This document shows, piece after piece, positions 2,194-31,076 of a stretch of 41,293 nt of DNA; position 1 is the stretch's first letter, and each line of letters opens with the position of its first letter. The DNA is from an uncultured Candidatus Saccharibacteria bacterium (GTDB lineage: Bacteria > Patescibacteriota > Minisyncoccia > Phycocordibacterales > DATDWN01), in assembly GCA_964424295.1 (NCBI GenBank), contig CAYRHZ010000002.1:1-41293 (forward strand), read 5' to 3'. Position numbers and translations under genes: made by a program. Under the pieces are notes generated by a model. The model saw only the letters and a program-made list of their open reading frames with translations. It had not been told where the DNA came from and ran no database searches.

Positions 2194-2787
2194 ATGGAAT
2201 CAATTAAAACAAAAACAGGAAAAGCTTTCGAAGCACTAAAGGGAGAATTTGGTTATAAAAACCCTATGCAAGCACCTAAGGTAATGAAGGTTGTAGTTTC
2301 TTCTGGTATCGGATCTGTAAAAGATAAAAAGAAAATTGAACTTATAGCAGACAGACTTTCAAAAATCACAGGGCAAAAGCCATCTAGAAAGGGAGCAAAG
2401 ATTTCTATCGCAGCTTTCAAAGTTCGAGAAGGGGACCCAGTAGGAATGCAAATCACTTTGAGAGGCGCAAGAATGTATGATTTTCTAGACAGACTAGTAA
2501 ACATCGCTCTTCCGAGAACAAAGGACTTCCGAGGTATTTCTTCAAACGGAATTGACCAAATGGGTAACTATACTCTAGGAATAAAAGAAAACACTATTTT
2601 CCCAGAATCAGGAGACGAGGATTTGAAAGATGTTTTCGGACTTGCAGTAACAGTTGTAACAAACGTTAAAGATCCAAAGCAGACAAAAGCATTCCTTCTC
2701 CACTTAGGATTCCCATTTAAAAAGGTAGAAACTAAAGAAGTTAAAGCAAAGCTTGATCCAAAGAAAGGAAGATTCGCAAAGAAATAA
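2194..2787 (+). CDS. rplE: 50S ribosomal protein L5
   Basis: KNPMQAPKVMKVVVSSGIG and RGISSNGIDQMGNYTLGIKE are uL5-like. Position after rplX. Confidence 0.95.
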   Translation: MESIKTKTGKAFEALKGEFGYKNPMQAPKVMKVVVSSGIGSVKDKKKIELIADRLSKITGQKPSRKGAKISIAAFKVREGDPVGMQITLRGARMYDFLDRLVNIALPRTKDFRGISSNGIDQMGNYTLGIKENTIFPESGDEDLKDVFGLAVTVVTNVKDPKQTKAFLLHLGFPFKKVETKEVKAKLDPKKGRFAKK

Positions 2788-2790
2788 ACA

Positions 2791-2817
2791 AAAGACCACC
2801 TAACAGGTGGTTTTTTG
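2791..2817 (+). terminator. rho-independent terminator-like hairpin immediately after rplE
   Basis: accacct-aac-aggtggt (7-bp stem, 2795-2811) followed by a T6 run. Same ccacc/ggtgg style as hairpins at 20705 and 41186. Confidence 0.6.
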
Positions 2818-2822
2818 TTGTA

Positions 2823-2852
2823 TTGACAAAAAGCGGGAAAGTGTTATATAAT
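2823..2852 (+). promoter_or_regulatory. sigma70-like promoter (TTGACA, 18-nt spacer, TATAAT)
   Basis: TTGACA at 2823-2828 and TATAAT at 2847-2852, read directly from the sequence. Confidence 0.5.
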
Positions 2853-2899
2853 GCAACGCGGAAATGCCTACGTTTGGGCTATCCCACAGGAGACAGCAG

Positions 2900-3421
2900 A
2901 TGACGACAGCTACCGAATCGGCTACCACGACCAGTACGGAACAGGCCAGCACGAAGGACTTCTGGACGCAGGTCCAGGAGGTCGACCTCTCGGCCGTCCC
3001 GACGGATGCCATCGACCTCCACGAGCCGAAGGACGACGCCGTCGTTCTCGGCGAGGCGAGTGACATCTCTCGCAGGATCTACGTGGTGATGAACCGGGAG
3101 TCTCGCAAGTTCCACGAATTCGAGATTCAGCTTCTCGAGAAGGGAAGGAAGCACCAGGAGCTTCACACGGAATCGGGTGACGACGACCACAACTGCGCCG
3201 ACTTCAAGAAGGAAATCCTGCCCCTGGTGGAGGAGGGCAGGAAGCAGGCCGCACGGTTGGACCTCATCAGGTCCCTGTTCTGGACGTCGATGAAGATCGA
3301 CTTCCCGGACCTCGAAGGCAAGGAAAACATCTTCATCGCCCAGGGGTGGAAGGTGGGCCACGAGAAGCAGAGTCCCCGTGGCCGCTTCGGCGTCCGGGTG
3401 TACGAAGTTCAACATCGGTGA
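2900..3421 (+). CDS. hypothetical protein, GC-rich orphan (173 aa; T/S-rich acidic N-terminus, charged helical core)
   Basis: AGGAGA (2888-2893) lies 6 nt before ATG 2900. Tracked ORF 2864..3421 is the same frame. Strong G/C third-position bias. No motif I recognise. Confidence 0.7.
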   Translation: MTTATESATTTSTEQASTKDFWTQVQEVDLSAVPTDAIDLHEPKDDAVVLGEASDISRRIYVVMNRESRKFHEFEIQLLEKGRKHQELHTESGDDDHNCADFKKEILPLVEEGRKQAARLDLIRSLFWTSMKIDFPDLEGKENIFIAQGWKVGHEKQSPRGRFGVRVYEVQHR

Positions 3422-3498
3422 CCTGTTAGGTGCCCATCGGCACAACGGGTAGCGATGCATAGCTAGTCCGCTAAGTAAGTTCAGCGGCAGCAAACAGG
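3422..3498 (+). ncRNA. candidate structured RNA / 3' UTR element closed by cctgtt...aacagg
   Basis: cctgtt (3422-3427) pairs with aacagg (3493-3498). Enclosed hairpins are gtgcc-catc-ggcac, tagc-gatgcata-gcta and ccgct-(10 nt)-agcgg. Hand folding only. Confidence 0.3.
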
Positions 3499-3506
3499 AG
3501 TGTGTG

Positions 3507-3537
3507 GAGGTCGGCATCGTGCCGACCTCTTTTTTGT
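3507..3537 (+). terminator. rho-independent terminator of the GC-rich cassette
   Basis: gaggtcggc-atcgt-gccgacctc (9-bp GC-rich stem) followed by a T6 run. Confidence 0.8.
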
Positions 3538-3739
3538 TTGACTTTCAAAGGCTTAATTGTTAGTATGAACCCCGAGCTAATAAGCTCTATTTTGTTTGAA
3601 ATCATTCATATTCGGCGCATTTCTTTGTCGCCAGCTCCGCCTACTTCCTTTGCAGTATTTTTATACAGCTCGGTCGTATGCTCGCTGTCTTCGCGAACTG
3701 CATCCAAATCTGAATAATTTCAGAAATACATAAAACCTA

Positions 3740-6373: not shown

Positions 6374-7645
6374 ATGAAAGAATTTTTTAACAAGTTCACT
6401 CTAGTATTTCAAGACTCAGTTCTTCGAAAGAGAATTCTTTTTACTTTGTTTGCATTAGTGCTTTTTAGAGCTTTGTCTGCAGTTCCTATTTCTGGTATCG
6501 ACACTGGAAGACTTGCTCAGTTTTTTTCAAACAACCAGTTTCTAGGTCTACTTAATATTTTTTCAGGAGGAGGCTTATCACAGCTTTCTATTGTGATGCT
6601 TGGAGTTTCACCTTACATTACTGGCTCTATCATAATGCAACTTCTTACTATAATGTCTCCAAAGCTTAAGGCTATGTACCAGGAAGACGGGGAAGCTGGA
6701 AGAAGAAAATTCGCACAATACGGAAGAATGCTTACTGTACCACTTGCTTTACTACAAGGTTATTCATTTATTAAAATATTAGAAACACAACAGGTTATTG
6801 TTGGTCTATCTGGTATTGAGTTAATAACAAATCTAATTGTTATCACAGCTGGTTCCATTTTGCTTATGTGGATTGGAGAACTTGTGTCTGAATATGGAAT
6901 CGGTAATGGTATAAGTCTTATCATATTTGCAGGTATCGTAGCGGCTCTTCCTACTCAAATAGGTCAGCTTATATACGCTTTTGATCCTTCTCAAATACCG
7001 GTATACCTAGCTCTTATGGTTGTTGCGGCGCTTGTAATAGTCTTGGTTGTTGTTATCACAGAAGCAGAAAGACCGATACCTATTGTTCAAGCAAAACAAG
7101 TACGAGGTAACAGAGTTTTTGGGGGAGGATCTTCATATCTACCTTTGCGAATTAACCAAGCCGGAGTGATTCCAATCATATTTGCTCTATCTATACTTTT
7201 GTTCCCGCAAATGATCCTAAGATTTTTGCAAGGAATTAGTAACACTACTGTTCAAAGTATCTCAACTACCGCTTTAAATCTATTGGCAAATAGCTGGTTC
7301 TACGGAGTTTCTTATTTCTTTCTAGTGTTTATTTTCACTTACTTCTATACAGCAGTTACATTTGATCCAGATCAAATCTCTACAAACTTACAAAAGAACG
7401 GTTCATTTATTCCAGGAGTTCGACCGGGAAAATCTACTTCAGATCACATCTCTAGAATCCTAACTAGACTTACTTTGGTTGGAGCATTATTTCTAGGTGT
7501 AATAGCTGTGTTGCCGTTAATAGCATCACAAGTAACTGGTATTACTGCCATATCTGTTGGAGGAACATCACTTCTAATCGTAGTTTCAGTTGTTATTGAT
7601 TTGATTAAGAAGGTTGATGCTCAGGTATCTATCCGAGAGTACTAA
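6374..7645 (+). CDS. secY: preprotein translocase subunit SecY
   Basis: 423-aa polytopic membrane protein with GISPYITGSIIMQLL-type TM2 (GVSPYITGSIIMQLLT). Canonical position. Confidence 0.96.
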   Translation: MKEFFNKFTLVFQDSVLRKRILFTLFALVLFRALSAVPISGIDTGRLAQFFSNNQFLGLLNIFSGGGLSQLSIVMLGVSPYITGSIIMQLLTIMSPKLKAMYQEDGEAGRRKFAQYGRMLTVPLALLQGYSFIKILETQQVIVGLSGIELITNLIVITAGSILLMWIGELVSEYGIGNGISLIIFAGIVAALPTQIGQLIYAFDPSQIPVYLALMVVAALVIVLVVVITEAERPIPIVQAKQVRGNRVFGGGSSYLPLRINQAGVIPIIFALSILLFPQMILRFLQGISNTTVQSISTTALNLLANSWFYGVSYFFLVFIFTYFYTAVTFDPDQISTNLQKNGSFIPGVRPGKSTSDHISRILTRLTLVGALFLGVIAVLPLIASQVTGITAISVGGTSLLIVVSVVIDLIKKVDAQVSIREY

Positions 7646-7680
7646 AATCTTTCAAATCTGACGAACTCCAATCTATTCAC

Positions 7681-7711
7681 AAAAAAGACCTCTAAATCAG
7701 AGGTCTTTTTT
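7681..7711 (+). terminator. rho-independent terminator after secY
   Basis: agacctct-aaatc-agaggtct (8-bp stem, 7686-7706), with an A-run before and a T6 run after. Confidence 0.7.
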
Positions 7712-7724
7712 GTACCCGTGTCAA

Positions 7725-7754
7725 TTGGAATTTATGGTCCTTTATGGTTATATT
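7725..7754 (+). promoter_or_regulatory. promoter-like boxes TTGGAA, 18-nt spacer, TATATT
   Basis: TTGGAA at 7725-7730 and TATATT at 7749-7754. The spacer contains the direct repeat tttatggt x2. Confidence 0.35.
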
Positions 7755-7771
7755 TGTGTTGGGGGGGATTG

Positions 7772-8185
7772 ATGAAGATCATCGTCGCCGACAGAAGAGG
7801 GATCGTTTTTTCTGCTATCGAGGCGGGCCTGCGCAAGAGGAACATTCAGACCCCGACTGTGCTGGCCAGGGACGGAAAGACACTCCGCGAGTTTCTTGGC
7901 CTCTGCGCAGACGTAGTGGTGGTTTCGGCACAGCTTTTGCCGGGCTACACCACCAACGAACAACTGGCAGAGGAGGTGAAGAAACAGTGCTCTAGCGCCG
8001 TGTTTGTTGTCTACAACAGCGTGGTGGAGAAGCACGGTCCAAACGTCGACCTTCGGATTCCCAGCTTTGTTGGTGGTGGAGACAAAACTATCGGTCTTCA
8101 CATCGTAGACTATCTTTCCGACCACGTATTCGTCGTCGGCACTGGAGTCTACGTCCAGCTCAGCCTTGTATTCTCGTTCGATTAG
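7772..8185 (+). CDS. hypothetical protein, GC-rich orphan; receiver-like (CheY-fold) pattern lacking the phospho-acceptor Asp
   Basis: GGGGGGA (7761-7767) precedes ATG 7772. MKIIVADRR..., VVVVSAQLLPG and VFVVYNS align by eye with the native receiver at 27239 (ILLVDDD, IILMDIIMPG, IIMLTNQ), but with Ser in place of the acceptor Asp. Confidence 0.55.
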   Translation: MKIIVADRRGIVFSAIEAGLRKRNIQTPTVLARDGKTLREFLGLCADVVVVSAQLLPGYTTNEQLAEEVKKQCSSAVFVVYNSVVEKHGPNVDLRIPSFVGGGDKTIGLHIVDYLSDHVFVVGTGVYVQLSLVFSFD

Positions 8186-8215
8186 AGGGCGGACTTTTTG
8201 TCGCCCTTTTGTTTT
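8186..8215 (+). terminator. terminator-like hairpin after the second GC-rich ORF
   Basis: agggcgg-ac-ttttt-gtcgccct imperfect stem followed by TTTTGTTTT. Confidence 0.5.
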
Positions 8216-8233
8216 GTATGATATTATATCTTT

Positions 8234-8824
8234 ATGAATCAATTTACTTTCATTATCTTTGGACCTTCGGGTTCAGGGAAGGGTACTCAAGCACATTTAT
8301 TAATTGATCTTTTAAAAAAAATAGATAGCGAAAGAAAGGTAATGTATATTGAAACAGGACAGAGGTTTCGAGAATTTGCTGATAGTGGTTCTTATACTGC
8401 AACTTTGGTGAAGGGGGTTATGAGCACAGGGGCACTTCTTCCAGAATTTTTACCAATATGGATGTGGACAGAAATTCTAGTTCACGATTTTGCAGGTAAC
8501 GAGAATATTATTTTTGAAGGAGTATCTCGACGAGAGCACGAAGCCCCTATACTTGATTCGGCAATGCGATTTTATAAAAGAGAAAATCCTTACGTTATTT
8601 CAATAAATGTTTCAAAAGAATGGGCAACACAAAGACTTAATGCTCGAGGTAGATATGATGATACTCCTGCAGATATTATAGAGAGATTAAATTGGTACGA
8701 TAAAAATGTTGTACCAGCAATAGACTTTTTCAAGAATGATCCATACTATAAAATTCTAGAAATTAATGGAGAGCAGAGTATAGAGGACGTACATAAGGAA
8801 ATTGTACAAAAACTAGGAATCTGA
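8234..8824 (+). CDS. adk: adenylate kinase
   Basis: P-loop FGPSGSGKGTQA. 196 aa. Canonical position between secY and map. Confidence 0.9.
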   Translation: MNQFTFIIFGPSGSGKGTQAHLLIDLLKKIDSERKVMYIETGQRFREFADSGSYTATLVKGVMSTGALLPEFLPIWMWTEILVHDFAGNENIIFEGVSRREHEAPILDSAMRFYKRENPYVISINVSKEWATQRLNARGRYDDTPADIIERLNWYDKNVVPAIDFFKNDPYYKILEINGEQSIEDVHKEIVQKLGI

Positions 8825-10304: not shown

Positions 10305-10778
10305 CTATTGTCTTAAATAGTTTCTAAAATTAAAGTTTTTACCAGCTATTTTATAGCTACTACTTACTGAGCCAGGTCTTCCATTCAATGGTGCGGTATA
10401 TGTAAAAACCACATCGGAAACTTGGAATCTATCATTATTTAGATCTACAGCAACTCCAGTTCCTCGAGATATTGTCATTTTATTTCCAGTCTGTGATATG
10501 ACTAAAGGACTTTGCGCCCCCATGTCCGGTCTAGATATGGTCAGTATTGTTCCTCCACCAGAAACAGAAGCCCCTGTTGCTGAAGTTAATGCCCAGTTTA
10601 TTTTTCTATTCAAGAAAGTCCCTTCCTCTTCTATTTTTGTTGAGTCTATATTTCTTCTACCACCTTCAAGCAAGTTGTATGTTCCAACCACAGCTCCAGA
10701 CATAATAATCCCAAATAGAGCAATGTAAACCATTGTTTCCATCAAAGTAAACCCGGAATTGTTTTTTCGACTTTTCAT
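10305..10778 (-). CDS. prepilin-type N-terminal cleavage/methylation domain protein (pseudopilin)
   Basis: NNSGFTLMETMVYIALFGIIMSG is a class III signal (G|FTLxE plus hydrophobic helix). Confidence 0.85.
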   Translation of the reverse strand: MKSRKNNSGFTLMETMVYIALFGIIMSGAVVGTYNLLEGGRRNIDSTKIEEEGTFLNRKINWALTSATGASVSGGGTILTISRPDMGAQSPLVISQTGNKMTISRGTGVAVDLNNDRFQVSDVVFTYTAPLNGRPGSVSSSYKIAGKNFNFRNYLRQ

Positions 10779-12337
10779 TATGGTGTGGTGTATAAAACTT
10801 GTAATTTATCTGTAGATGCAAGGTTTGAAATGCCATATATCCAATCTCCATCAATATCAAAACCTAACGGTGCGAGGTTGCCAAAATTGAAGGCCTTAAA
10901 TCTCCCGGAGTTTAATGTGGCTGAGTTCCAATTTATATATTTACTATCCCAAATTTGAAATTCTTCTCCAGGTCTGTTGGTTCCTAAATATACATATTCT
11001 CCAGAAACTTTTATTGTAGATACATCAGATGAAACTTCTCCCTGACCTATTATTGGAAGGCTTGTAGCGGAATTTGTTATATTGAAAACATATAATTCAG
11101 GACCTACAGTGTTACTGCTTCTACCCAGATAAAGACTGTTTCCCACAAGAGAAATACTCATGCCGTCTTGAATTCCAGGTAGATCAACTGAGTTTATTTC
11201 CGAAACTGTGTCTCCAGTAACATCAAGTACCGCTAGTTCTCTTAAATTAGAATCTGATGCTATAAATGCTAATCTTTTAATAACATTTCCAACCTTCTGC
11301 TCTCGCACGATTAGATCGTTTACAGTTCTGTTTAGTTCAAAACCGTTTCCAATCTCAGTGGGCAGGGTTGGTGTGCTTATGTCAAAAATGTGAAATTCTG
11401 TTCCCAGAGTTTCTCTAACAGTGATATAAAGTCTTTGCCCGTATATATAAAGTCTATAGCCCTGTGGGTATGATCCAAATTGATCTACGTTTTGTAAAGT
11501 AACTTGTGTTTTTAAATCTGGATTATGAGAGTCTGTGACATCGAAAACTGACAATTGTTTTGTTGTTGTGGCAACAGCTACAAATGCATAGGTTCTTCCA
11601 GTGCTTAGGTCTTGTTCGACGTCAATCGCATTAATTTTTACTGAAAAACCATTTAGTTTTAAGTCGTATGAACCAACGGCAACAGGACTGGTTCCTATCC
11701 CAGTTGGAATATCGTAAACATAAAAGGAGGGGACTGTATTTGTTGTTGCATATATTTTTTTATGTAGGACATCGATACTAGTAAATTGTTTTCCTGGTGT
11801 GTTTGAAAGGGTGCCTACAGAGAGTGGGGAGTTATCTTTCCAGTTTCCGTTTGGTGTATTTAAAATACAGTCACCGCCTCGGTTAATTATTTCTTGTGAG
11901 TTTGTAAGGTTTGTATAAAGAGAGCTTTCTGTTCGGGGGTAGTTATTAACTTGCCAATCAACTTTTGCTTCAACAAATTTTGAACATGAAGAAATGTCAA
12001 TGATATTTGTTTCTACAAAATAACAAAGACCTCCGTCTATACAAGATTGGTCTGCTGGATCGGAAACAACAACAGATGCTACTCTTGGCTTTGAAACTGC
12101 TCCATAGAAGTCCTGTTTAATTAGTGATCTCAAGTCTTCTAATTCCGTTTTTGTTTTGTAGAGACCTTCATTTGATGTTCGACTTACTTGGGTCCAATAC
12201 TGTGCCGCAAAATTTCCTTGTAAGGCACCAGTAAGAACAATAGATATGAGCGCAAAAGCAATCATAAGCTCTAGTGTAGAGAATCCCACTTGTTTCAGTG
12301 CACGACCTGTATTTTTACCAAGCAATTTTTCCTTCAT
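10778..12337 (-). CDS. large pilin-headed protein with probable beta-propeller body (candidate tip adhesin)
   Basis: N-terminal QVGFSTLELMIAFALISIVLTG prepilin motif. It is followed by about 480 aa of repetitive beta-rich segments (YAFVAV, LYITVRE, LAFIASD, LYLGRSS, VYLGTNR). Confidence 0.8.
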   Translation of the reverse strand: MKEKLLGKNTGRALKQVGFSTLELMIAFALISIVLTGALQGNFAAQYWTQVSRTSNEGLYKTKTELEDLRSLIKQDFYGAVSKPRVASVVVSDPADQSCIDGGLCYFVETNIIDISSCSKFVEAKVDWQVNNYPRTESSLYTNLTNSQEIINRGGDCILNTPNGNWKDNSPLSVGTLSNTPGKQFTSIDVLHKKIYATTNTVPSFYVYDIPTGIGTSPVAVGSYDLKLNGFSVKINAIDVEQDLSTGRTYAFVAVATTTKQLSVFDVTDSHNPDLKTQVTLQNVDQFGSYPQGYRLYIYGQRLYITVRETLGTEFHIFDISTPTLPTEIGNGFELNRTVNDLIVREQKVGNVIKRLAFIASDSNLRELAVLDVTGDTVSEINSVDLPGIQDGMSISLVGNSLYLGRSSNTVGPELYVFNITNSATSLPIIGQGEVSSDVSTIKVSGEYVYLGTNRPGEEFQIWDSKYINWNSATLNSGRFKAFNFGNLAPLGFDIDGDWIYGISNLASTDKLQVLYTTP

Positions 12338-12782
12338 AATTTATGTTTATCTCAGCTGACATTCCTCTTGTTGTGTCTAGTACAGTAATAGCTCCGTTAT
12401 AGCTTGCATCTCCACTAAGCTGGGAGAATGTTACTTCTGTCGGTGCAAGTGGCGAGAATTCTAAATCATACGAAGAGTTTAGAACTATGTCTTTTGATGT
12501 GTCTCTTGTGGCAAAAGTATTTCCTTCAAAAATAATATATGTTTTACTTCCACCCGGATTAAAAGCAACCCCGTGAATTTTTTGGTTTATATTATTAAAT
12601 GAGTTTGCTCGGGCAGTTTGTAGGGCTGTTCCAATTGTGCTGACTTCAGATCGAAATGCGTCACCTCTAAAACTATTTATCTCAATAAAAGAGGCGACAG
12701 AACCTACAATAGTGACTAATCCTACGGTTATCAGGATTTCTAGTAGCGTGAATCCTCGTTTTTTGATTGTCACATTAGCCAT
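12315..12782 (-). CDS. prepilin-type pseudopilin
   Basis: KKRGFTLLEILITVGLVTIVGS class III signal. Overlaps the downstream gene by 23 nt. Confidence 0.85.
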   Translation of the reverse strand: MANVTIKKRGFTLLEILITVGLVTIVGSVASFIEINSFRGDAFRSEVSTIGTALQTARANSFNNINQKIHGVAFNPGGSKTYIIFEGNTFATRDTSKDIVLNSSYDLEFSPLAPTEVTFSQLSGDASYNGAITVLDTTRGMSAEININYEGKIAW

Positions 12783-13917
12783 TTAAGTTTTGAGTAATGC
12801 TGTAAATAGGAGTGATAATCGATATTGCTATGAAGCCAACTAGTATTCCCATAATTATCATAAGAGCTGGTTCGATTAAACTTGAAAGGTTTTTCGTAAA
12901 GTCATCTACTTGTGATTCATACAGTTCCGAAAGGTATATAAGTGAGTTTGAAAGATTACCGCTTCTTTCTCCAACAGAAATAATCTGTGAAAGTACGTCG
13001 GGGAACAGATGTCTTCTTGTTCCAAGATACAAGGAAATTTTATCCCCGCGATTTATACTAACTGATAATTTTTTAAATTCTTCTCGGTAAACCAAGTTGC
13101 TACTCGTTTTCTCCGCAATAGGTATTGCCTCGCTTACCGTAACGCCCCCCTTAAGCAGTAGTCCTATGGTCCTCGTGGAGTTTGCGAGGTTGTAATCTCT
13201 AATAATATTTCCAATCAGTGGAATTCTTAGTATGAATTTGTCGAAATAGAAGTGAAAGGTTTTACTTTTTTTCAGCACGAACATAAAACCAAGAACCGCT
13301 GAAGCTATAGCGAAGAAAATATATATACCATTATGTCTTATAAACTCACTTAAAAATATTACAATTCTAGTAGAGAGGGGGAGTTTTATGTGTAAGCTTT
13401 GAAAAACGGGCATAATTTTGGGGAATAGATAAATCATCAGGAATCCCGTAATTCCAAAAGTCGCAAGTGTAACAACGATAGGGTATACAAAGGCCCCAAC
13501 AACTTTTTTCTTTAAAACCTCCTTCTTTCGAAGCTCATCTGCCAGGTAGTCTAGGTTTTCTGAAAGTATCCCACTAGATTCACCGAAACTAATTATGTTT
13601 ATGGAAAAATCACTAAACATATTAGGGTACTTTGCTAGACTAGTAGAAAGCTGTTGGCCATTTGATACGTCCAAAATTATTGCATCTAAAATTCTAACGT
13701 AACCTTTTTTACGAGTTTGCTCCTTAATCATGTGTAAACTGTCCAGAACTGGAACTCCCGCCTTGACTAGAAATGAAAGTCTTTTGATAAAAAAAGTCTG
13801 ATCCTTGTTAGACATTTTTCCGAAAGATATTTTTTGCATTTCACTAAAATAACTCTTTCTTTCTTTGATAGGTTTTACTTCGACGTTTTCAATTTTTACA
13901 GTCTTTTTAGCTCTCAT
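12775..13917 (-). CDS. type II secretion / type IV pilus platform protein (GspF/PilC family)
   Basis: 380 aa with two repeats of the GspF-type domain and three TM segments. Overlaps the pseudopilin gene by 8 nt. Confidence 0.88.
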   Translation of the reverse strand: MRAKKTVKIENVEVKPIKERKSYFSEMQKISFGKMSNKDQTFFIKRLSFLVKAGVPVLDSLHMIKEQTRKKGYVRILDAIILDVSNGQQLSTSLAKYPNMFSDFSINIISFGESSGILSENLDYLADELRKKEVLKKKVVGAFVYPIVVTLATFGITGFLMIYLFPKIMPVFQSLHIKLPLSTRIVIFLSEFIRHNGIYIFFAIASAVLGFMFVLKKSKTFHFYFDKFILRIPLIGNIIRDYNLANSTRTIGLLLKGGVTVSEAIPIAEKTSSNLVYREEFKKLSVSINRGDKISLYLGTRRHLFPDVLSQIISVGERSGNLSNSLIYLSELYESQVDDFTKNLSSLIEPALMIIMGILVGFIAISIITPIYSITQNLNG

Positions 13918-13922
13918 ATATT

Positions 13923-15167
13923 TTATTCGTGTACAACTCGCAGGATCTCTTCTAGGGTGGTTTCGCCAGTTAGGGCTTTCATGAAACCATCTTCAAGCAT
14001 AGTTGTCATTCCTCTTTCTACGGCCAGTTTTTTTATTTCACTTGCTGAAGATTTTTTCAAAATAGCTTCTTTTATTACGTCATCAGCCACTAGAACCTCG
14101 TTTATAGAAAGTCTTCCAACGTAACCACTTTTGCCACATTTTTTACAACCTTTACCTTTGTAGAATTCACTGTCGTCCTTCATAAGTCTTCCAAATGGTG
14201 TTTCTTTCAAACTATCTATTAGTGCCTGTGTCATCTCAACTTTTTCTTTGCAGTTTTTGCATATTTTTCTGACAAGTCTTTGTCCAATAGCCACACTAAC
14301 AGTAGATGCGACAAGGTACTCTTCAATTCCCATATCTAAAAGACGGGGGAGAGTCGTGGCTGCATCGTTTGTATGTAGTGTTGAAAGTAGCAAGTGTCCA
14401 GTAAGGGCAGTATTCACTGCAATAGATGCTGTTTCAGCGTCACGAATTTCTCCAACCATAATAATGTTTGGATCTTGTCGAAGGATACTTCTTAGTCCAT
14501 TTGCAAAAGTTAGTCCCGATTTTGCATTTACTTGGATTTGTTCAATTTCATCTACAGCGTATTCAATAGGGTCTTCAATAGTCACGATTGAAACCTCCGG
14601 AGAATTTAACATCTTTATAAGAGTATAAAGAGTTGTGGTTTTTCCAGATCCAGTAGGTCCTGTAGAAAGGATCATTCCATTAGGTTTCTTCATTGCCTGT
14701 ACAATTTTCTTTACATCGCTTTGGCTAAAACCAAGAGATTCTAAGCTGAAAACTTCTGCTTTGTCAGAGAGAAGTCGCATAACAGCATTTTCTCCGTGGT
14801 ATGTTGGCACGATAGATACGCGAAGGTCTACAAATTCACCAGTTTCTTTCCCGTTTTCATGAAAGCTATATCTGAAACGACCATCCTGTGTTGCCTGGTG
14901 TTCGTCTGTGCGAAGTTTGGAAAGGACTTTTATTCTAGAGATTATCTCGTTATGTATGATTTTTGGGAAATCATGCGCTTCTTGTAGAACGCCGTCTATT
15001 CGAAATCTTACCCTTACGTTATCTACCCCTGGGTCAATATGGATGTCAGAAACCCTTGAATTATAGGCATTTTCCACTAAACAGTCGACAAGGTTTATGA
15101 TAGATATGTCTCTACCTTTTATTAAATCTGTCTCCAATATGTCCAGTTTTTCCTTAGTTGTAGTCAT
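13923..15167 (-). CDS. GspE/PilB-family assembly ATPase, short form without the N-terminal domain
   Basis: Walker A GPTGSGKTTT, Asp box, His box (LLLSTLHTNDA) and a tetracysteine CKNC...CKKC. Confidence 0.9.
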   Translation of the reverse strand: MTTTKEKLDILETDLIKGRDISIINLVDCLVENAYNSRVSDIHIDPGVDNVRVRFRIDGVLQEAHDFPKIIHNEIISRIKVLSKLRTDEHQATQDGRFRYSFHENGKETGEFVDLRVSIVPTYHGENAVMRLLSDKAEVFSLESLGFSQSDVKKIVQAMKKPNGMILSTGPTGSGKTTTLYTLIKMLNSPEVSIVTIEDPIEYAVDEIEQIQVNAKSGLTFANGLRSILRQDPNIIMVGEIRDAETASIAVNTALTGHLLLSTLHTNDAATTLPRLLDMGIEEYLVASTVSVAIGQRLVRKICKNCKEKVEMTQALIDSLKETPFGRLMKDDSEFYKGKGCKKCGKSGYVGRLSINEVLVADDVIKEAILKKSSASEIKKLAVERGMTTMLEDGFMKALTGETTLEEILRVVHE

Positions 15168-16538: not shown

Positions 16539-19500
16539 ATGAAAAAAATTTTAATACTTGTTTTGTTCTATCTCGCATTACTTACTCCATTAAAAGATCT
16601 CTCTGCTCAATCAAGCGATATAATATTCTCGATGAACTGTGCATCGTCTAGCGATACCAATTGTGGTTGGCCAGGTAGCGTACCAGAAAACGCACATCAC
16701 TCCAGAACTTTCTTGCAAGGCGGTGGGCCAAATGGTCAAAATGCCATGCGCTTCAATTACCTCAATAGTGGGGGATATGATGAGTTTTATTTAGGGTGGT
16801 CTGGATTCATCGAGCAGGAAAACCTTCCGCAAGGATCCACTCGCTATTATCGTTTCCGACTTCGCTATACTCCTGAAACTATATTCAATGGCTATAACTC
16901 AAGTGGAGGAACAGGGCGTATGTTAAACAAGTATCTCATTGTGGGTGATGGTTGTGGTAGTAATTGTAGACCTATTCTCCAGGCTTATACCTACGACATG
17001 ACAGGTAATTTTAGAGTCACGTTGCAAATTGATGGTGGTGCATATCCAATAACAGTTGACAATCTCACAGCTGGAGTCTGGTATGATATTCAGCTAGAAC
17101 TTAACACTTCTAGTAGTACTTCTAACCCAAATGGTAGCTATAAGATGTGGGTTAACAACAATAACTATTCTTCACCAAGTGCACAGACTTCTGGTTTCCA
17201 ACTCAACCCAGTTCGTTGGGGTTATGTTGCTTTTGGATTCTACTCAAACCATGTAGTAACTTCTCAAGGGCAAGTAGGCATGATTCTGACAGATTTCCAA
17301 GCAGCAAGGAGTTTTAATTCAAACTGGTATGGTGGTGGCTCAACCACACCTCCTCCTCCAACCGTTACTGTTCCTACAGCACCAGCATCTCTTTCAGCGT
17401 CACCAGCAGGAACATCACAAGTAAACCTATCCTGGACAGACTCATCAAACAACGAAACAGGATTCAGAATAGAAAGAAAGACAGGTTCAGCTGGAACATA
17501 CGCAGAAATAGCTACAGTAGGTGCAAATACAACAACATATCAAAACACAGGTCTTACTGCTTCTACACAGTATTACTACAGAGTAAGAGCATACAACTCT
17601 GCGGGTAACTCGTCTTACTCAGTAGAATCTATAGCAGTGACTTCTAACCCAACAACAGTATCTCCTTCAACACGATTTACAGTAGGGCAACGTGTTCAAA
17701 CTACAGCTAATGTAAATGTTAGGAGTACAGCATCAGCCACAGGAGCTCTCTTGGGGACACAAGCACTTGGAGCACTGGGTACAATAGTAAGTGGGGGCAC
17801 TTCAGTAGACGGGTACTACTGGTGGAATGTTAACTTCGATTCAGGCGTAGATGGTTGGAGTGTAGAAACATTTCTAAATCCATATACTGCACCTGCAACA
17901 CCAACCCCAACAACTAGTGGTGTATTCTTTAACGAAGGATGGGAGTCTGGAAGTAAAGCCAACTCTTTCAATAGTAGTGGTTATGGAAATTTATTAAACA
18001 GTACCCAATATAGTGTTCAAACATCTACTCGATCTACTGGAAGTTATGGTTTAAGACATGGTCTTACAACGGGTATGACTGGAGGGGATGCTCAATATGC
18101 GACACAACACTTTGGGGATTCAGTTACAGGACCAGTTGTTTCAGGTACAGCTGGTAACACATATAGTGACGTATATGCTCAATGGAAGGTATTCTACTCA
18201 CCAGGGTTTAATTTTGCCGTAAATCCAAAGCAGGTGATTTTTGGTACACAAGATTCCAGAAGACACGACAATTCTTGTTGTAATCCTTGGGTATCACACT
18301 ATATGCTAATAAATAGTTATGGTGGTTATTTTCAAGCAGAAGGAAATAATAAACAAGGGGCAAGTGGACAATGGTTAAACATAGGACTAAACCAAAGTGG
18401 ATATTCAGGATCAAATAGATACGCTATACAATCTGGAAGATGGTATACGATAGAAGTTAGAAGAAGATTAAATGATGCAAACCAAGATAATGGTGTATTT
18501 GAAATGTGGATTGATGGAACACTTGTTGCTCGACATTCGAATGTAAGATGGAGAGTTCCATGGACAGGAACATTTGGAGATGATTTCACACGTGGCACAA
18601 ACTTCTTTATGATATCGGATTATCTAACCGATGGAATACCAGTGCCAGCAAATCAAGAAATATACTATGATGATGTAAAACTTAGTACAAGTTATATAGG
18701 CACTAGTGGCACAACAACCCCTACACCCCCACCGCCAGTAACACCAACAGCAGACATTAGGGCAAACAACTCAACTTCACCAATATCAATAGTTAGTGGT
18801 AGTTCAGCCACAATATCTTGGGCATCTACAAATACAACTACATGTTCTGTATCACCAAGTAGTTGGACAGGAACAAGTGGTTCCCAATCAACAGGAGCAC
18901 TTACAGCTAGTAGAACATATACAATCTCTTGTACTGGTTCAGGCGGGACAGTTACAGACTCTATTTCGGTTAATGTTACACCTCCACCCGACACAACACC
19001 TCCAGCAGTCTCTGTATCATCACCGGTTTCAGGTTCTACAGTAAGTGGAACAGTAACAGTCTCAGCTAATGCATCAGACAACATAGGTGTAGCAGGAGTT
19101 CAATTTAGATTAAATGGAGTGAACCTAGGAATTGAAGACACAACATCTCCATATTCTGTATCATGGAACACCACAACAGCAACAAACGGAATACACACAC
19201 TTACAGCTGTTGCTAGAGATGCAGCTGGTAACACAACCACATCATCCGCTGTGTCTGTTACAGTAAATAATGTAACTGTAACACCTGCTCCAACAGTTAC
19301 AATCTCAGCATCTCCTACATCTGTAACTGTAGGAAGTTCATCAACACTTTCATGGTCTTCAACAAACGCAACATCTTGTACAGCAAGTGGAGCGTGGTCA
19401 GGAAGTAGAGGAACATCCGGAACCATGTCTGTTTCTCCAACTACCTCATCAACATATACTCTTTCATGTACAGGAGCGGGAGGAACAGTAACACAGTCAA

Positions 19501-20246
19501 CTACTGTTTTTGTGGAAACAAATACACAAGTAACTACAAATCCAGGAACAGTTACAACTCTATCTGTGTCACAAACAAACACAACATCGGTCACACTTTC
19601 ATTTGTTGAAGTAAATGATGGAACTGGGCTTCCATCACAATATGATGTGAGATTTGCTTCTCCAACCCTATCTTGGGGATCAGCGGGAAGTGTGACATCA
19701 GGAACATGTTCTACGCCACTACAAGGAACAACAATAGGAGGCACAAAGACTTGTACAGTAGACAACCTTAATCCGGGTACACAGTATGGATTCCAACTAG
19801 TTTCATTTAGAGGAACACTTAATCAGAATGCTGTGTTTGGTGGTCTTTCCAACAAAGTTACAACTACTACTCTTACAACCACTGCTCCTCCACCTCCACC
19901 ACCAACAGAAACCCTACCGTCTTTGGATATAATGGAGCCAAAAGTAGGAGACAGAGTCCAAACAACAACTAGAGTTAGTGTAAGAGAAACTCCAGGTGGT
20001 GACAGAATAGGTTCTCAACCTAGAAATTCTAAAGGTACGGTAATAGAGGGACCAATAGAGGGGGGTAGTCATCTTTGGTACAAAGTAGACTATGACTCTG
20101 GTGTAGATGGCTGGTCATCAGCAACCTATCTAACCAAAGTTAGTGTAACAGCTATGACAGAAGATGAGATAAGAAACAGTATTGCGAACATATTCTTGTT
20201 GATTAATCAACTACAAGAACAACTAAATAAAATGAAGATTAATTAG
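16539..20246 (+). CDS. 1235-aa secreted multidomain surface protein
   Basis: Signal peptide MKKILILVLFYLALLTPLKDLSAQ. Two jelly-roll/LamG-like regions (KMWVNNN..., FEMWIDGTLV), two FN3-like units (YYYRVRAYNSAGNS; GTQYGFQLVSF) and two SH3b-like units (DGYYWWNVNFDSGVDGW; HLWYKVDYDSGVDGW). Also Ig-like repeats and P/T linkers. Domain names are by-eye inference. Confidence 0.9.
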   Translation: MKKILILVLFYLALLTPLKDLSAQSSDIIFSMNCASSSDTNCGWPGSVPENAHHSRTFLQGGGPNGQNAMRFNYLNSGGYDEFYLGWSGFIEQENLPQGSTRYYRFRLRYTPETIFNGYNSSGGTGRMLNKYLIVGDGCGSNCRPILQAYTYDMTGNFRVTLQIDGGAYPITVDNLTAGVWYDIQLELNTSSSTSNPNGSYKMWVNNNNYSSPSAQTSGFQLNPVRWGYVAFGFYSNHVVTSQGQVGMILTDFQAARSFNSNWYGGGSTTPPPPTVTVPTAPASLSASPAGTSQVNLSWTDSSNNETGFRIERKTGSAGTYAEIATVGANTTTYQNTGLTASTQYYYRVRAYNSAGNSSYSVESIAVTSNPTTVSPSTRFTVGQRVQTTANVNVRSTASATGALLGTQALGALGTIVSGGTSVDGYYWWNVNFDSGVDGWSVETFLNPYTAPATPTPTTSGVFFNEGWESGSKANSFNSSGYGNLLNSTQYSVQTSTRSTGSYGLRHGLTTGMTGGDAQYATQHFGDSVTGPVVSGTAGNTYSDVYAQWKVFYSPGFNFAVNPKQVIFGTQDSRRHDNSCCNPWVSHYMLINSYGGYFQAEGNNKQGASGQWLNIGLNQSGYSGSNRYAIQSGRWYTIEVRRRLNDANQDNGVFEMWIDGTLVARHSNVRWRVPWTGTFGDDFTRGTNFFMISDYLTDGIPVPANQEIYYDDVKLSTSYIGTSGTTTPTPPPPVTPTADIRANNSTSPISIVSGSSATISWASTNTTTCSVSPSSWTGTSGSQSTGALTASRTYTISCTGSGGTVTDSISVNVTPPPDTTPPAVSVSSPVSGSTVSGTVTVSANASDNIGVAGVQFRLNGVNLGIEDTTSPYSVSWNTTTATNGIHTLTAVARDAAGNTTTSSAVSVTVNNVTVTPAPTVTISASPTSVTVGSSSTLSWSSTNATSCTASGAWSGSRGTSGTMSVSPTTSSTYTLSCTGAGGTVTQSTTVFVETNTQVTTNPGTVTTLSVSQTNTTSVTLSFVEVNDGTGLPSQYDVRFASPTLSWGSAGSVTSGTCSTPLQGTTIGGTKTCTVDNLNPGTQYGFQLVSFRGTLNQNAVFGGLSNKVTTTTLTTTAPPPPPPTETLPSLDIMEPKVGDRVQTTTRVSVRETPGGDRIGSQPRNSKGTVIEGPIEGGSHLWYKVDYDSGVDGWSSATYLTKVSVTAMTEDEIRNSIANIFLLINQLQEQLNKMKIN

Positions 20247-20737: not shown

Positions 20738-20826
20738 CGGAGACGGACGGATTCGAACCGTCGGTACCGTTTAAAGGGTACACCTCTTTAGCAAAGAGGC
20801 ACGTTAGACCACTCTGACACGTCTCC
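20738..20826 (-). tRNA. tRNA-Ser (anticodon GCU), class II
   Basis: Reverse complement is ggagacg...cgtctcc-g. Features: 7-bp acceptor, anticodon loop ttGCTaa (20790-20792), long variable arm gtacc/ggtac, T arm gacgg-ttcgaat-ccgtc, G73. I could not pair the D stem cleanly by hand. Confidence 0.8.
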
Positions 20827-20840: not shown

Positions 20841-20868
20841 TTAGCATATTTTATGTATTAGGTATAAT
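20841..20868 (+). promoter_or_regulatory. promoter-like boxes TTAGCA, 16-nt spacer, TATAAT
   Basis: TTAGCA at 20841-20846 and TATAAT at 20863-20868. Confidence 0.4.
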
Positions 20869-20887
20869 ATTCCTCTCGGAGACCTTC

Positions 20888-21336
20888 ATGCCAGACAAGA
20901 ATGGCTAACCACAAAAGAGTTCGCCGACCTTATTTCCGTCGGAGAGTGCACTGTCTATAGGTGGATTTACGACGACATCATCCCGTACTTCAACAGCCGC
21001 ATACCAAGGAGGTACGCAAACAAGATCGAGAGATTGTGGGCGAAAACCTGCACACCTTCCGAGTTCGCTAGACATCTCGGCGTCAGCCCATCGAAAGTAG
21101 ACATTCTGATGAGTAAGGGGAAACTTCGGGGCATCAGGGTGCTGAGAAAGGTCAGGCTGTATCTAAAGGACCTGAAAAAGGTCAGAGAGGATAAAGACCT
21201 GGTCCAGAAAGGAGATGTTGTTTACAAAAACAAGAGGGGCTTTGCGCGGTACTCGAAGAAGAGAAAGACCGCGATTGCTCTTTTGGGTAACCATTCCCCA
21301 AACAGAAAGAAAAGAGGTAAAAAGGCAGATTTGTGA
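20888..21336 (+). pseudogene. frameshifted tandem excisionase/MerR-type HTH protein gene (GC-rich)
   Basis: GGAGA (20878-20882) plus ATG 20888 opens only MPDKNG*, with the stop at 20906-20908. The long frame from 20902 encodes two HTH units (WLTTKEFADLISVGECTVYRWIYDDIIP... and CTPSEFARHLGVSPSKVDILMSKGKLRGIRV...) plus a basic tail. That frame has no ATG/GTG/TTG before TTG 21034. Confidence 0.6.
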
Positions 21337-21339
21337 TTA

Positions 21340-21366
21340 GGGCGCCCGTGATTTTTCCGGGCGCCC
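21340..21366 (+). terminator. GC-rich hairpin after the HTH gene
   Basis: gggcgcccg-(9 nt)-cgggcgccc is a 9-bp stem. The downstream T-tract is weak. Confidence 0.45.
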
Positions 21367-21372
21367 GTTCTA

Positions 21373-21401
21373 TTACAATTTCATTAAAAATTTTGTATAC
21401 T
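21373..21401 (+). promoter_or_regulatory. promoter-like boxes TTACAA, 17-nt spacer, TATACT, 9 nt upstream of the partial tRNA 5' copy
   Basis: TTACAA at 21373-21378 and TATACT at 21396-21401. The repeat ggataggtgggtgag begins at 21411. Confidence 0.45.
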
Positions 21402-21410
21402 TGGAAAATT

Positions 21411-21425
21411 GGATAGGTGGGTGAG
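21411..21425 (+). repeat. 15-nt exact copy of the 5' end of the tRNA at 21529
   Basis: ggataggtgggtgag occurs at 21411-21425 and at 21529-21543, separated by 103 nt of mostly GC-rich sequence. Confidence 0.9.
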
Positions 21426-21528
21426 ATGGGTGAAGGGCAGAACTGCTTCTGTCCAAACCGGCCGAAGAGCCGACCACGAACACGCCGGATCGCTTTAGCG
21501 AATCCAATTTGAACGAAGTGAATATATT

Positions 21529-21615
21529 GGATAGGTGGGTGAGTGGTTTAAACCAGCAGTTTACTAAACTGCCGTCTGGGAAACTGGACCGCGAGTTCAA
21601 ATCTCGCCCTATCCG
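21529..21615 (+). tRNA. class II tRNA, Ser-type by architecture, with unusual anticodon ACU
   Basis: Acceptor ggatagg/cctatcc with G73, D arm ggt-gagtggtttaa-acc. Anticodon arm gcagt-ttACTaa-actgc (21563-21565). Variable arm gtctgg-gaaa-ctggac, T arm gcgag-ttcaaat-ctcgc. Confidence 0.7.
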
Positions 21616-21714
21616 CAGGATTCAACAAAATATATTTTGTTGGAGATTTGAAAGACGGAGCGCGACGGTGCGAGTCCGGGTAGGGAAAGTTTTTAACAAA
21701 AAACTATTCCTGAC

Positions 21715-21734
21715 CAAATCTCGCCCTATCCGCA
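21715..21734 (+). repeat. 20-nt exact copy of the 3' end of the tRNA at 21529
   Basis: caaatctcgccctatccgca occurs at 21598-21617 and at 21715-21734, 97 nt apart. Confidence 0.9.
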
Positions 21735-21735
21735 T

Positions 21736-22404
21736 TTAGTGCGCAATAGTGAATCCGTAAACGTTTACAGCTCCCATATCGAGTAATGTTTTCCGCGCTT
21801 CATTTAGTGTGCTTCCAGTTGTAACGACATCATCAATTAGAAAAACATATTTACCAGATATTCTTTCATCTGCTTTAAAACACCCAACGAGATTTTCTGT
21901 TCTTTCTGTTTTTGACTGGCTTAAACTTTGTTTAGGGGTTTCTTTTATTTTTTCAAACCACTGTGGCGCATACAGAAGAGTTCTTTGCAAATCATTCTCT
22001 ACTATAGCTCGGGAGATTAGTTCGCTTTGGTTGTATCCACGTTCAGTTCTGCTTTTTGCGGTCAAAGGAATTGGAATGAGAACAAACTCTGCTTTTGCAT
22101 CAAAGAGCAGTACATCTGAAATAACTATCAACATTTCATCGAAAAACATTTTTCCTATAGTTCCAAGAGGTAGTATATTTTCTCTGTATTTTAGTTCCCA
22201 TATTATTGCCTTCACTCGCTTGTTTTTGTATGAAAATAGGGGATTGATCCAATCGTTGTCTTGAACCCTCTCAGCTTTAGGTAGGGCATGTATACTTTTC
22301 TCGTCCAGCCTCCGGACTATCTCATAGTCAGACCTTACGGGCAATATGAAATCTATGATAGTTTTAAAAAATTCCAGCACTATTTCTATTGTATTTTTTA
22401 ACAT
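21736..22404 (-). CDS. comFC: ComF-family phosphoribosyltransferase-domain protein
   Basis: C-terminal PRT motif YVFLIDDVVTTGSTLNEARKTLLDMGA. The N-terminus has no Cys zinc-finger. Confidence 0.85.
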   Translation of the reverse strand: MLKNTIEIVLEFFKTIIDFILPVRSDYEIVRRLDEKSIHALPKAERVQDNDWINPLFSYKNKRVKAIIWELKYRENILPLGTIGKMFFDEMLIVISDVLLFDAKAEFVLIPIPLTAKSRTERGYNQSELISRAIVENDLQRTLLYAPQWFEKIKETPKQSLSQSKTERTENLVGCFKADERISGKYVFLIDDVVTTGSTLNEARKTLLDMGAVNVYGFTIAH

Positions 22405-23580: not shown

Positions 23581-23647
23581 AACTTCCAAATTTGGCCAAT
23601 TTCATCGTCGGCAACATCAAGTTGCCGTTCTGAAACCCACGGGTTCA

Positions 23648-23686
23648 GAAAACTCCGCGCTACTTATGGAGTGGCGCGGAGTTTTC
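23648..23686. terminator. strong GC hairpin with flanking A/T runs (third of three consecutive hairpins after pilM)
   Basis: gaaaactccgcgc-(13 nt)-gcgcggagttttc is a 13-bp perfect stem. It is preceded by hairpins 23609-23627 (cggcaac/gttgccg) and 23630-23648 (ctgaa-a-ccc/gggttcag). Confidence 0.55.
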
Positions 23687-23774
23687 CAATTATATTCCTT
23701 CTATTTAGCGAAATCATAAGTTTTTAGGACATTGCGCAGGAAATTAGAAAACAACAACGAACGAAAAGAAGACT

Positions 23775-23857
23775 GAAGCACTGTTTGAGCGCTTGTATTC
23801 AAGGCGAGTTTGCGAAAGTGCTATGCTTCAAGGATATTGTTTTCTTGATTACTGAGC
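23775..23857. repeat. conserved non-coding bipartite motif, copy A
   Basis: 23775-23815 matches 30239-30279 at 38 of 41 positions (hand alignment). 23830-23857 (aaggatattgttttcttgattactgagc) matches 30373-30400. Confidence 0.8.
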
Positions 23858-23973
23858 GAGAGGAATTTTCTACCAAGAAAATATCCGTGCTCTAAAAACA
23901 AACAATCGAGAGGGTTTTTATACACAGTTTAAATAGTTTTTTATACTTGTATGTACTATAATTTGTAAATATT

Positions 23974-24576: not shown

Positions 24577-24577
24577 C

Positions 24578-25129: not shown

Positions 25130-25135
25130 GACAAC

Positions 25136-25480: not shown

Positions 25481-25493
25481 ACATATTTAAATC

Positions 25494-27218: not shown

Positions 27219-27238
27219 TGATAGTATAATTACATTCT

Positions 27239-28699: not shown

Positions 28700-28731
28700 G
28701 TCTATCATCTAATTTCTAAATTCTATTCAAT

Positions 28732-29943: not shown

Positions 29944-30010
29944 TTTCTGGTCTTTTTACTCAATCTCATCTTCTAAAATTTGAAAAACATCTTCACCGTA
30001 CTAGGTTGTA

Positions 30011-30400: not shown

Positions 30401-30473
30401 ATAGCAAAACCCCTACTAGGGTTTATGCGTGTCTTTAAAACTTATGATTTGAAGCCCTTATCCACAGGGGTAC

Positions 30474-31055: not shown

Positions 31056-31076
31056 TCTTACTTAGTTTATGTTTTA

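Follow-up and report, generated by a model that had tools for sequence, protein, structure and literature searches.

What occupies the 588 nt between secY and adk of an uncultured Candidatus Saccharibacteria bacterium, how it came to be so much richer in G+C than its surroundings and what its product may do were the questions addressed here. The sequence analysed, called the window throughout, was a stretch of 41,293 nt (positions 1–41,293, forward strand, of contig CAYRHZ010000002.1, assembly GCA_964424295.1), for which an initial annotation, made from the letters, had described a GC-rich cassette with an open reading frame (ORF) of 137 codons between the two core genes. The ORF proved to be a gene. 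That its product is a pseudo-receiver which docks on the sliding clamp, encoded at a recombining hypervariable locus, is the reading favoured here and is given about an even chance.

The gene between secY and adk

The ORF from the ATG at 7772 to the stop at 8185 is a real gene on the plus strand and has the 137 codons first assigned to it. A 2162-nt contig of the independent run X1 (depth 8.9) covered positions 7300–8334 of the window with 0 differences and spanned both junctions; near-identical copies (97–98% amino acid identity of the ORF product) were present in two further samples (L002 and L003), and the order secY, terminator, promoter, ORF of ~130 amino acids (aa), GC hairpin and adk recurred in more than 12 independent assemblies. 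The runs with sequence of the organism were wastewater, freshwater and groundwater metagenomes. For comparison with relatives, 80 SecY-anchored loci from GTDB species representatives were used, of which the nearest by SecY belonged to uncultured Paceibacteria/Parcubacteria-type genomes, including metagenome-assembled genomes (MAGs) labelled Zambryskibacteria.

A minus-strand ORF (7748–8242) lies opposite, and the initial annotation, which had pointed it out, had rested the choice of strand on promoter, Shine-Dalgarno (SD) sequence and fold-like pattern. In three informative allele pairs omega (the ratio of non-synonymous to synonymous divergence, dN/dS) was 0.13, 0.17 and 0.21 in the sense frame (purifying selection), as opposed to 1.2, 0.97 and 1.1 in the open antisense frame (neutral) of the same pairs. 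The antisense frame was broken by 1–4 stops in L004, L087, L089 and L091, no minus-strand ORF of at least 70 aa was found in L001 or L010, and the antisense ORF had no Pfam match. With omega near 1 and with stops in relatives, the antisense ORF is therefore judged not to be a gene; its frame is kept open by the G+C richness of the segment. Next to no probability attaches to the view that the feature is no plus-strand gene at all, either with the antisense ORF as the true gene or with the segment as an assembly chimera. The antisense ORF is the longer one (164 aa) and overlaps the sense ORF completely, and the pattern of G+C by codon position does not discriminate between the two frames, but its neutral evolution and its stops in relatives contradict the first version, and the junctions found without difference in an independent contig, together with the repeated architecture, contradict the second. 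Measured against the initial annotation, a receiver-fold match was obtained (see below), coding statistics were not better on the minus strand and the junctions were supported by independent sequence.

The following features were assigned to the locus (window coordinates):

6374–7645, plus strand: secY, upstream core gene and conserved left flank (ORF list; PF00344 on orthologous loci)
7679–7713, plus strand: hairpin flanked by A6 and T6 (-20.3 kcal/mol, z = -8.0), predicted secY terminator
7720–7728, plus strand: GTCAATTGG motif, conserved, overlapping the promoter-like boxes
7725–7754, plus strand: promoter-like TTGGAA-N18-TATATT (consensus scan), putative promoter
7761–7767, plus strand: SD-like G7 run (sequence), 4 nt upstream of the ATG
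7772–8185, plus strand: ATG to stop of the 137-aa ORF (ORF list, homologs), for a protein of predicted receiver fold with no phosphorylation residues
7925–7930, plus strand: codons S52-A53, equivalent to the phospho-acceptor Asp of receivers (alignments to EvgA, RcsB and the native receiver of the window)
8156–8173, plus strand: codons Q129-L-S-L-V-F134, followed by S-F-D-COOH, predicted hexameric QLxLxF-type beta clamp motif
8184–8216, plus strand: GC-rich hairpin (8184–8209) plus T-tract (consensus scan; -14 kcal/mol, z = -4.1), predicted terminator of the ORF
8198–8227, plus strand: promoter-like site for adk, TTGTCG-N18-TATTAT with TG extension (consensus scan), putative promoter
8234–8824, plus strand: adk, downstream core gene and conserved right flank (ORF list; PF00406 on orthologous loci)
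7748–8242, minus strand: antisense ORF of 164 aa (ORF list), judged not a gene

That translation starts at 7772 follows from the family alignment and the SD-like run; neither a GTG at 7718 nor the ATG of one annotation (P0001) is conserved. The GTCAATTGG motif was exact in ten fetched loci representing seven distinct alleles (L086 being the same contig as L001, and L002 and L003 carrying near-identical copies of the window allele), and a related GTCAATTTG was present in cassette-less L011. Relatives retained, as judged by eye, the spacing of TTGGnn-N18 to a -10-like box, GGAGG or GGGG runs at the equivalent SD place, a GGGCGG...CCGCCC hairpin with differing loops after the ORF and TGnTATA(T/A)T-like boxes before adk. 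The upstream hairpin was near-identical in all cassette-bearing relatives; because cassette-less L007, L011 and L014 carry similar ones, the upstream terminator is considered ancestral to the locus and outside the variable unit, and its assignment to an inserted unit was rejected. The promoter-like boxes, the G-rich SD sequence and both terminators (the upstream one first placed at 7681–7711) were thus recovered as initially annotated, with promoter function as a prediction. No excess folding was seen in the 5' untranslated region of the ORF (z = +0.4), and Rfam gave no RNA family in the secY–adk region. Judged from its sequence, the segment is a monocistronic plus-strand gene within the spc ribosomal-protein operon of a member of the Paceibacteria (Patescibacteria; candidate phyla radiation, CPR), and is probably transcribed separately, from its predicted promoter.

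Between the secY stop and the terminator (window 7669–7680) an indel was observed, with ~100–140 nt extra, containing imperfect inverted repeats, in relatives and other strains (L001 9760–9900, L002 1497–1600, L084 500–640 and the strains of runs X3 and X4) and none of it in the window.

Allele exchange and base composition

The family comprised about 25 alleles, with homologs 25–98% identical. When 1.84 billion representative proteins were searched exhaustively with a profile, 18 relatives were returned, all of 126–155 aa, and no canonical receivers. Every allele of examined context (~15 distinct) sat at the secY–adk junction, in one clade, and among the 80 loci the family was confined to the nearest relatives (SecY 78–99% identical at the amino acid level). 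A metagenome scan with a narrow alignment gave two contigs only, from one metagenome, and a word-indexed profile search gave no new family members. The gene was absent from the equally close L007, L008 and L011, with a secY–adk gap of 57–116 nt; the gap was below 120 nt in 26 of the 80 related Paceibacteria loci, including nearest relatives lacking the gene, and adjacency of secY and adk is therefore a common state. Adjacency had initially been taken as the normal state, which applies to these loci but not to many others: in many distant Paceibacteria (among L027–L079) a gap of ~650 nt holds a minus-strand gene for a P-loop nucleotide kinase, cytidylate kinase-like, so that the junction is occupied by different genes in different clades. 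The ~650-nt gap had been considered as a diverged copy of the window gene, which was rejected, the kinase gene being unrelated. Present or absent among the nearest relatives, the gene is a conserved polymorphic locus and not a one-off insertion.

Identity of the ORF product and identity of adk were uncorrelated (Spearman 0.15, p = 0.15). Seven genomes with adk 89–97% identical had ORF identities of 24–89%, and the window and L089 shared 56% identity in adk and 63% in the ORF. Between the window and L002, synonymous divergence (dS) was 0.29 in secY, 0.21 in adk and 0.02 in the ORF; the corresponding values for L004 and L087 were 1.14, 1.50 and 0.235. For L001 and L004, non-synonymous divergence (dN) was 0.006 in secY, 0.03 in adk and 0.56 in the ORF, whose synonymous sites were saturated. 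The dS of the ORF was thus 5–10x below that of the flanks in two pairs and saturated in others, and identity profiles shifted abruptly at the ORF ends. From these contrasts and the abrupt change it follows that the coding sequence is a replaceable allele. The sequence comparisons indicate that alleles pass from lineage to lineage independently of the core genes on either side, and that the breakpoints fall in the conserved promoter and hairpin regions. The marks of a replacement-type hypervariable locus were all found: the gene keeps its position, its alleles are divergent and their phylogeny disagrees with that of the flanks. Hypervariability with horizontal spread would suggest conflict-type or frequency-dependent selection.

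The locus resembles replacement-type flexible genomic islands (O-antigen and pilin loci) in its fixed place between core genes, in alleles down to 24% identity in near-identical backgrounds, in incongruent phylogeny, atypical composition and presence/absence polymorphism. It differs from them in consisting of one gene of 0.4 kb and not of several clustered genes, in its place within the spc operon, which is universally conserved, in being GC-enriched rather than AT-enriched and in having a cytoplasmic product rather than a surface structure.

The G+C content of the ORF was 54.1%, compared with 37.7% in the rest of the window; the line 7861–7920 sampled in the initial annotation has 37 G+C in 60 nt, as given there. 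In 414-nt windows at least 50% G+C was reached in the 41 kb only by the secY–adk unit and by the first cassette at ~2700–3700. The counts and coordinates in the initial annotation were found to be right. G+C at third codon positions (GC3) of the window ORF was 0.66 versus 0.22–0.25 in the flanks, and across 13 alleles 0.49–0.67 in the ORF versus 0.19–0.38 in the adjacent adk. Fourfold sites were A.20, C.24, G.27, T.28 in the ORF and A.41, C.10, G.11, T.39 in adk, and the 100 nt upstream of each ORF were host-like (30–39% G+C). Since synonymous sites are saturated between alleles, this composition is maintained and not inherited from a recent donor. Recombination has been linked to GC content in bacteria (PMC4450053). 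The near-unbiased synonymous sites would be explained best by frequent recombination with GC-biased gene conversion, or by selection on the mRNA, and poorly by a recent foreign origin.

It is regarded as improbable that the gene was acquired recently, as a foreign or selfish gene, from a donor richer in G+C (phage, plasmid or host bacterium), with no function in the cell and with its G+C as a relic. Such a gene would have the atypical composition, the predicted promoter of its own and the terminators seen here; it would also fit the absence from L007, L008 and L011 among close relatives, the spread of alleles faster than their flanks and the occurrence of a second GC-rich unit in the same operon and of a third beside tRNA genes in the window. 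This view is contradicted by the same junction in lineages with adk only 51–60% identical, by saturated synonymous sites with GC3 nevertheless at 0.49–0.67 in 13/13 alleles, by the confinement of GC-richness to the coding part, with the promoter region host-like, and by purifying selection (omega 0.13–0.21). No relative was found in phage records (50,697), plasmids (72,556) or IMG/VR viral contigs (2.9 M), and each examined context of the 18 relatives among 1.84 billion proteins was the secY–adk junction. As a toxin–antitoxin, anti-phage defence or phage gene the ORF had no match to a known family (PADLOC, PHROGs) and no paired neighbour, the unit being monocistronic. No attC-like site, integrase or toxin–antitoxin partner gene was seen nearby, where no systematic search for them was made.

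Receiver-like fold and C-terminal tail

The ORF product is a cytoplasmic protein of 137 aa. Its AlphaFold2 model (predicted local distance difference test, pLDDT, 85; predicted template modelling score, pTM, 0.82) has the element order b1-a1-b2-a2-b3-a3-b4-loop-b5-a5, then a short hairpin and a low-confidence tail; a second model, of the 29%-identical allele P0021 (pLDDT 81), has the same core and a disordered stretch of ten last residues (pLDDT 35). In both, DSSP assigned a loop instead of helix alpha4 between b4 and b5. Foldseek searches of both models against the PDB returned as best matches almost exclusively CheY-like receiver domains (template modelling score, TM, 0.5–0.65, with 0.5–0.63 for the window model; E ~1e-3), among them the HP1043 structures of Helicobacter pylori (PDB 2hqo and 2pln, TMq 0.62), and receiver domains were again on top when the window model was compared with viral BFVD models. 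PIN, TIR and Toprim-like folds were considered and set aside, the Foldseek lists being dominated by receiver domains.

Sequence profiles were silent. Pfam (including PF00072), NCBIfam, PADLOC, PHROGs and PDB sequences gave no family for the window protein or the 25 members; PF00072 gave nothing for the window protein at E <= 10 and one of 25 members at E = 0.16, PADLOC gave 0 matches and PHROGs single matches only (E > 0.04). Scattered matches below threshold were confined to the N-terminal halves of the response regulators EvgA, RcsB and VanR-O. The by-eye alignment with the native receiver at 27239 in the initial annotation found no statistical support (BLASTP E = 11; hhalign probability 30% against a small receiver alignment of this protein with CheY, Spo0F and PhoB); the receiver-like beta/alpha pattern itself was borne out by the models, at the fold level.

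The five active-site residues of receivers are defined as DD, D, T and K (PMC12632262). Of these, the acidic pair is D7-R8 in the window protein, as annotated; among 25 members position 7 is D in 21 and E in 4, and position 8 is R or K in 22. The acceptor-equivalent residue depends on the alignment, being S52 (against EvgA D52) or A53 (against RcsB D56 and D59 of the native receiver), so that the Ser initially put at this position is one of two choices, while the loss of the acceptor stands: position 52 is S in 21, C in 2 and A in 2, position 53 is A, G, N, T, L or V, and Asp or Glu occurs at neither in any of the 25. With b4 and b5 ends placed by secondary structure rather than by superposition, the b4 end reads Y81-N82-G83 with no conserved Ser/Thr (position 83: G 22, S 2, C 1) and the b5 end I96-P97, with I, L or V at position 96 in 25/25 and Lys in none. 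One of the five residues (D7) is retained; four being gone, Asp phosphorylation is excluded, and the protein, going by its residues, cannot operate by it. Nor was a histidine kinase gene adjacent, the neighbours at all loci examined being secY, adk, map and ndk. Other residues are conserved at the C-terminal ends of b1, b3, b4 and b5 (D7-R8-x-G10, S52, Y81-N82-G83 and P97); these and D93, with K70 on a3 in addition, lie on the face which bears the active site in receivers and may form a conserved binding surface.

It is very unlikely that the protein is a true single-domain response regulator which takes its phosphate on an atypical residue (S52, for example) or from an unusual kinase. The receiver-like fold, the retained D7 and the conservation of S52 in 21 of 25 members (Cys in two) would suit this, but the second acidic residue, the acceptor Asp, the Thr/Ser and the Lys are all missing, two alleles have Ala at position 52, PF00072 does not match although it matches the canonical receiver of the same window at E = 8e-21, and no kinase gene adjoins. 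As the protein gave no profile match, differs from receivers at four of the five active-site residues and lacks alpha4, the wording 'receiver-like fold' was chosen rather than membership of the receiver family; at the fold level it is supported by the models.

A pseudo-receiver has been defined by a receiver or minor pseudo-receiver Pfam match together with the lack of at least one of the five residues (PMC12632262). No Pfam family matches here, and the protein qualifies through its predicted fold only. With the pseudo-receiver or aspartate-less receiver (ALR) domains of atypical response regulators such as HP1043 (PMC4395418; PMC12632262) it shares the CheY-like alpha/beta fold, the lack of the acceptor Asp and, presumably, independence of phosphorylation. 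Unlike ALR domains, it has no receiver or pseudo-receiver Pfam match, lacks four active-site residues and not one or two, has no helix alpha4, stands alone with no output domain, ends in a linear motif and is encoded at a hypervariable locus inside a ribosomal-protein operon.

The C-terminal motif is QLSLVF at residues 129–134 in the window protein and matches the strict form of clamp-binding motifs, canonically Q-phi-x-[L/M]-[F/L] or Q-phi-x-[L/M]-x-[F/L], with QLxLF and QLxLxF as the best binders (PMC11139829). Q129, present in all 24 members having a tail, is the most conserved feature of the variable C-terminal third; L130 is present in 17 and L132 in 22/25, and the terminal residue is Phe or Leu. 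The strict form (Q-phi-x-[LM]-[FL] or Q-phi-x-[LM]-x-[FL]) was found in 19 of 28 alleles and a loose form in 27, with the five- and six-residue forms interchanging among alleles (QLSLF, QLQLF, QLALF, QLELF, QLRLL, QLDLDL, QLHLPL, QLELEL, QLVLSL); the motif is the extreme C-terminus in 15 alleles and lies within the last 3–11 residues of the proteins. As background, the strict motif was counted among 1565 C-termini of ORFs in the same DNA and was present in at most 1% of them (16 matches, of which most are probably family members). The motif codons vary synonymously (CAG/CAA; CTC/CTT/CTG/TTG), and the constraint therefore acts on the peptide. pLDDT was 77 for residues 121–130 and 49 for residues 131–137 of the window model and 35 for residues 121–130 of P0021.

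Clamp docking is the preferred mechanism, held to be about as probable as all others together. A flexible tail QLxLF or QLxLx[LF] (here QLSLVF) would dock in the hydrophobic pocket of the beta sliding clamp (DnaN) and would tether the pseudo-receiver domain to clamps on DNA, where the domain might compete with other clamp clients or recruit a partner via its conserved face. Clamp motifs are often C-terminal, as in Pol II and Pol IV, and are flanked by acidic residues or the carboxyl terminus (PMC11139829). The family shares with known ligands (Pol II QLGLF, Pol IV QLVLGL; consensus QL[SD]LF, Dalrymple 2001; PMC11139829) the motif at or near the free C-terminus, the invariant Gln, the interchange of five- and six-residue forms and such a flank. 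It differs in that the known ligands are polymerases, repair enzymes, Hda, YabA, transposases and the like, with no small protein of receiver fold among them, and in that binding is here predicted.

The Caulobacter toxin SocB and phage-encoded clamp inhibitors are small proteins proposed to act through DnaN docking. Together with the small clamp-directed regulators YabA and Hda they offer a possible functional analogy, as the protein is small and its proposed action is through docking on DnaN; to YabA, Hda, SocB and the phage inhibitors it has no kinship in sequence or fold, no DnaA-binding or toxin features were identified in it, and no antitoxin or adaptor gene adjoins the window ORF.

Doubtful, though to be taken seriously, is a phosphorylation-independent pseudo-receiver acting as adaptor or regulator with no link to the clamp, in which Q-L-x-L-F would be another docking peptide, a degradation tag or a strand packing back on the domain. 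Fold and missing active-site residues fit this equally, residues 119–128 of the window model form a beta-hairpin leading into the motif, one third of the alleles are off the strict motif definition, and pseudo-receivers are common, with modes of action mostly unknown (PMC12632262). Against it, the motif fits the published clamp definition in both lengths with an invariant Gln, it either ends the protein or has acidic residues after it, and the pLDDT of the tail is 35 in the distant allele. We know of no other motif which fits the tail as precisely.

Several points weigh against the clamp-docking reading and the picture of the locus that goes with it. Nine of 28 alleles deviate at motif position 2 or 4 (QQRLF, QKRLF, QPSLF, QGVLPF, QLSFVF, QLAIDF and others), one allele (P0015) has no motif, and in the window protein three more residues follow it (QLSLVF-SFD) and residues 125–128, just ahead of it, are modelled as a beta-strand. 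Clamp binding is predicted from a short linear motif; no known clamp ligand with a receiver fold and no paper joining receiver folds and the clamp were found. The fold matches are moderate, with models built on shallow alignments of 7 and 9 sequences. The sequence was found in no RNA sequencing (RNA-seq) run, promoter and expression being predictions, the selective pressure at the locus is deduced, and GC-biased gene conversion is a fit to composition. The gene dnaN is not among the genes of the window.

What is new here is the combination of a clamp-binding-type tail with a tiny family restricted to one intergenic slot, allelic exchange and a maintained composition. A wider proposal is offered as conjecture, and as a whole it is rather unlikely: the secY–adk slot, and probably the rplE–rpsN slot too, would be a recombination-driven hypervariable locus in the most conserved operon, whose alleles cross between distant Paceibacteria via conserved flanks; the product, as a degenerate receiver tethered to DnaN, would represent sliding-clamp ligands of a new class and would act in genetic conflict (access of phages or rival mobile elements to the clamp) or in strain-specific control of replication in an epibiotic lifestyle; and gene conversion would hold synonymous sites near 50% G+C in a 38% genome. 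CPR genomes are small, and next to nothing is known of how they control replication. Should the tail bind DnaN, the protein would be the first clamp ligand with a receiver fold and a rare functional lead for a CPR-specific orphan protein; if the gene-conversion reading is true, the locus would lend itself naturally to testing GC-biased gene conversion in bacteria. Whatever the function, even the universally conserved spc operon can harbour a single gene that acts as a freely exchanged hypervariable allele, a composition far from genomic equilibrium over long divergence bears on selection versus biased gene conversion in bacteria, and a GC island in a MAG need not be read as a chimera or a recent transfer.

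Other GC-rich slots and genes of the window

The first GC-rich cassette (2790–3535, between rplE and rpsN) has a terminator hairpin, a near-consensus promoter TTGACA-N17-TATAAT, an ORF of 185 aa (2864–3421, GC3 0.83, no Pfam match) and in its 3' part a structured-looking tail of ~90 nt and a terminator at ~3507–3533. In relatives this slot holds other GC-rich ORFs, of which L005 133–768 is 45% identical to the 185-aa ORF of the window, and L001 5084–5542 and L006 755–1258 are members of an unrelated family whose N-terminus is hydrophobic. L007 and L011, both of which are also without the secY–adk gene, have nothing in this slot.

The third GC-rich unit (20860–21740) is located between the tRNA genes 20738–20826 (minus strand) and 21529–21615 (plus strand) and contains a TATAAT-like box, an ORF from ~20889 with an N-terminus resembling an excisionase-type helix-turn-helix (WLTTKEFADLISVGECTVYRWIYDD) and a GC hairpin at 21341–21367. 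Partial tRNA repeats (5' end at 21410–21428, 3' end at 21718–21737) suggest remnants of an integrated element.

Two gene sets like those for type IV pili or type II secretion were found at 10305–15167 and 22459–32500, with PilB- and PilT-type ATPases, PilC-type platform proteins, PilM, PilO, a prepilin peptidase and several N-methyl pilins. The canonical single-domain receiver (27239–27631; PF00072, E = 8e-21) lies between two of the ATPase genes. An ORF of 1235 aa at 16539–20246, with slightly raised G+C (0.41–0.44), contains domains of the types Big_7, fibronectin type III and SH3_3, matches polysaccharide lyases weakly and resembles a large surface protein.

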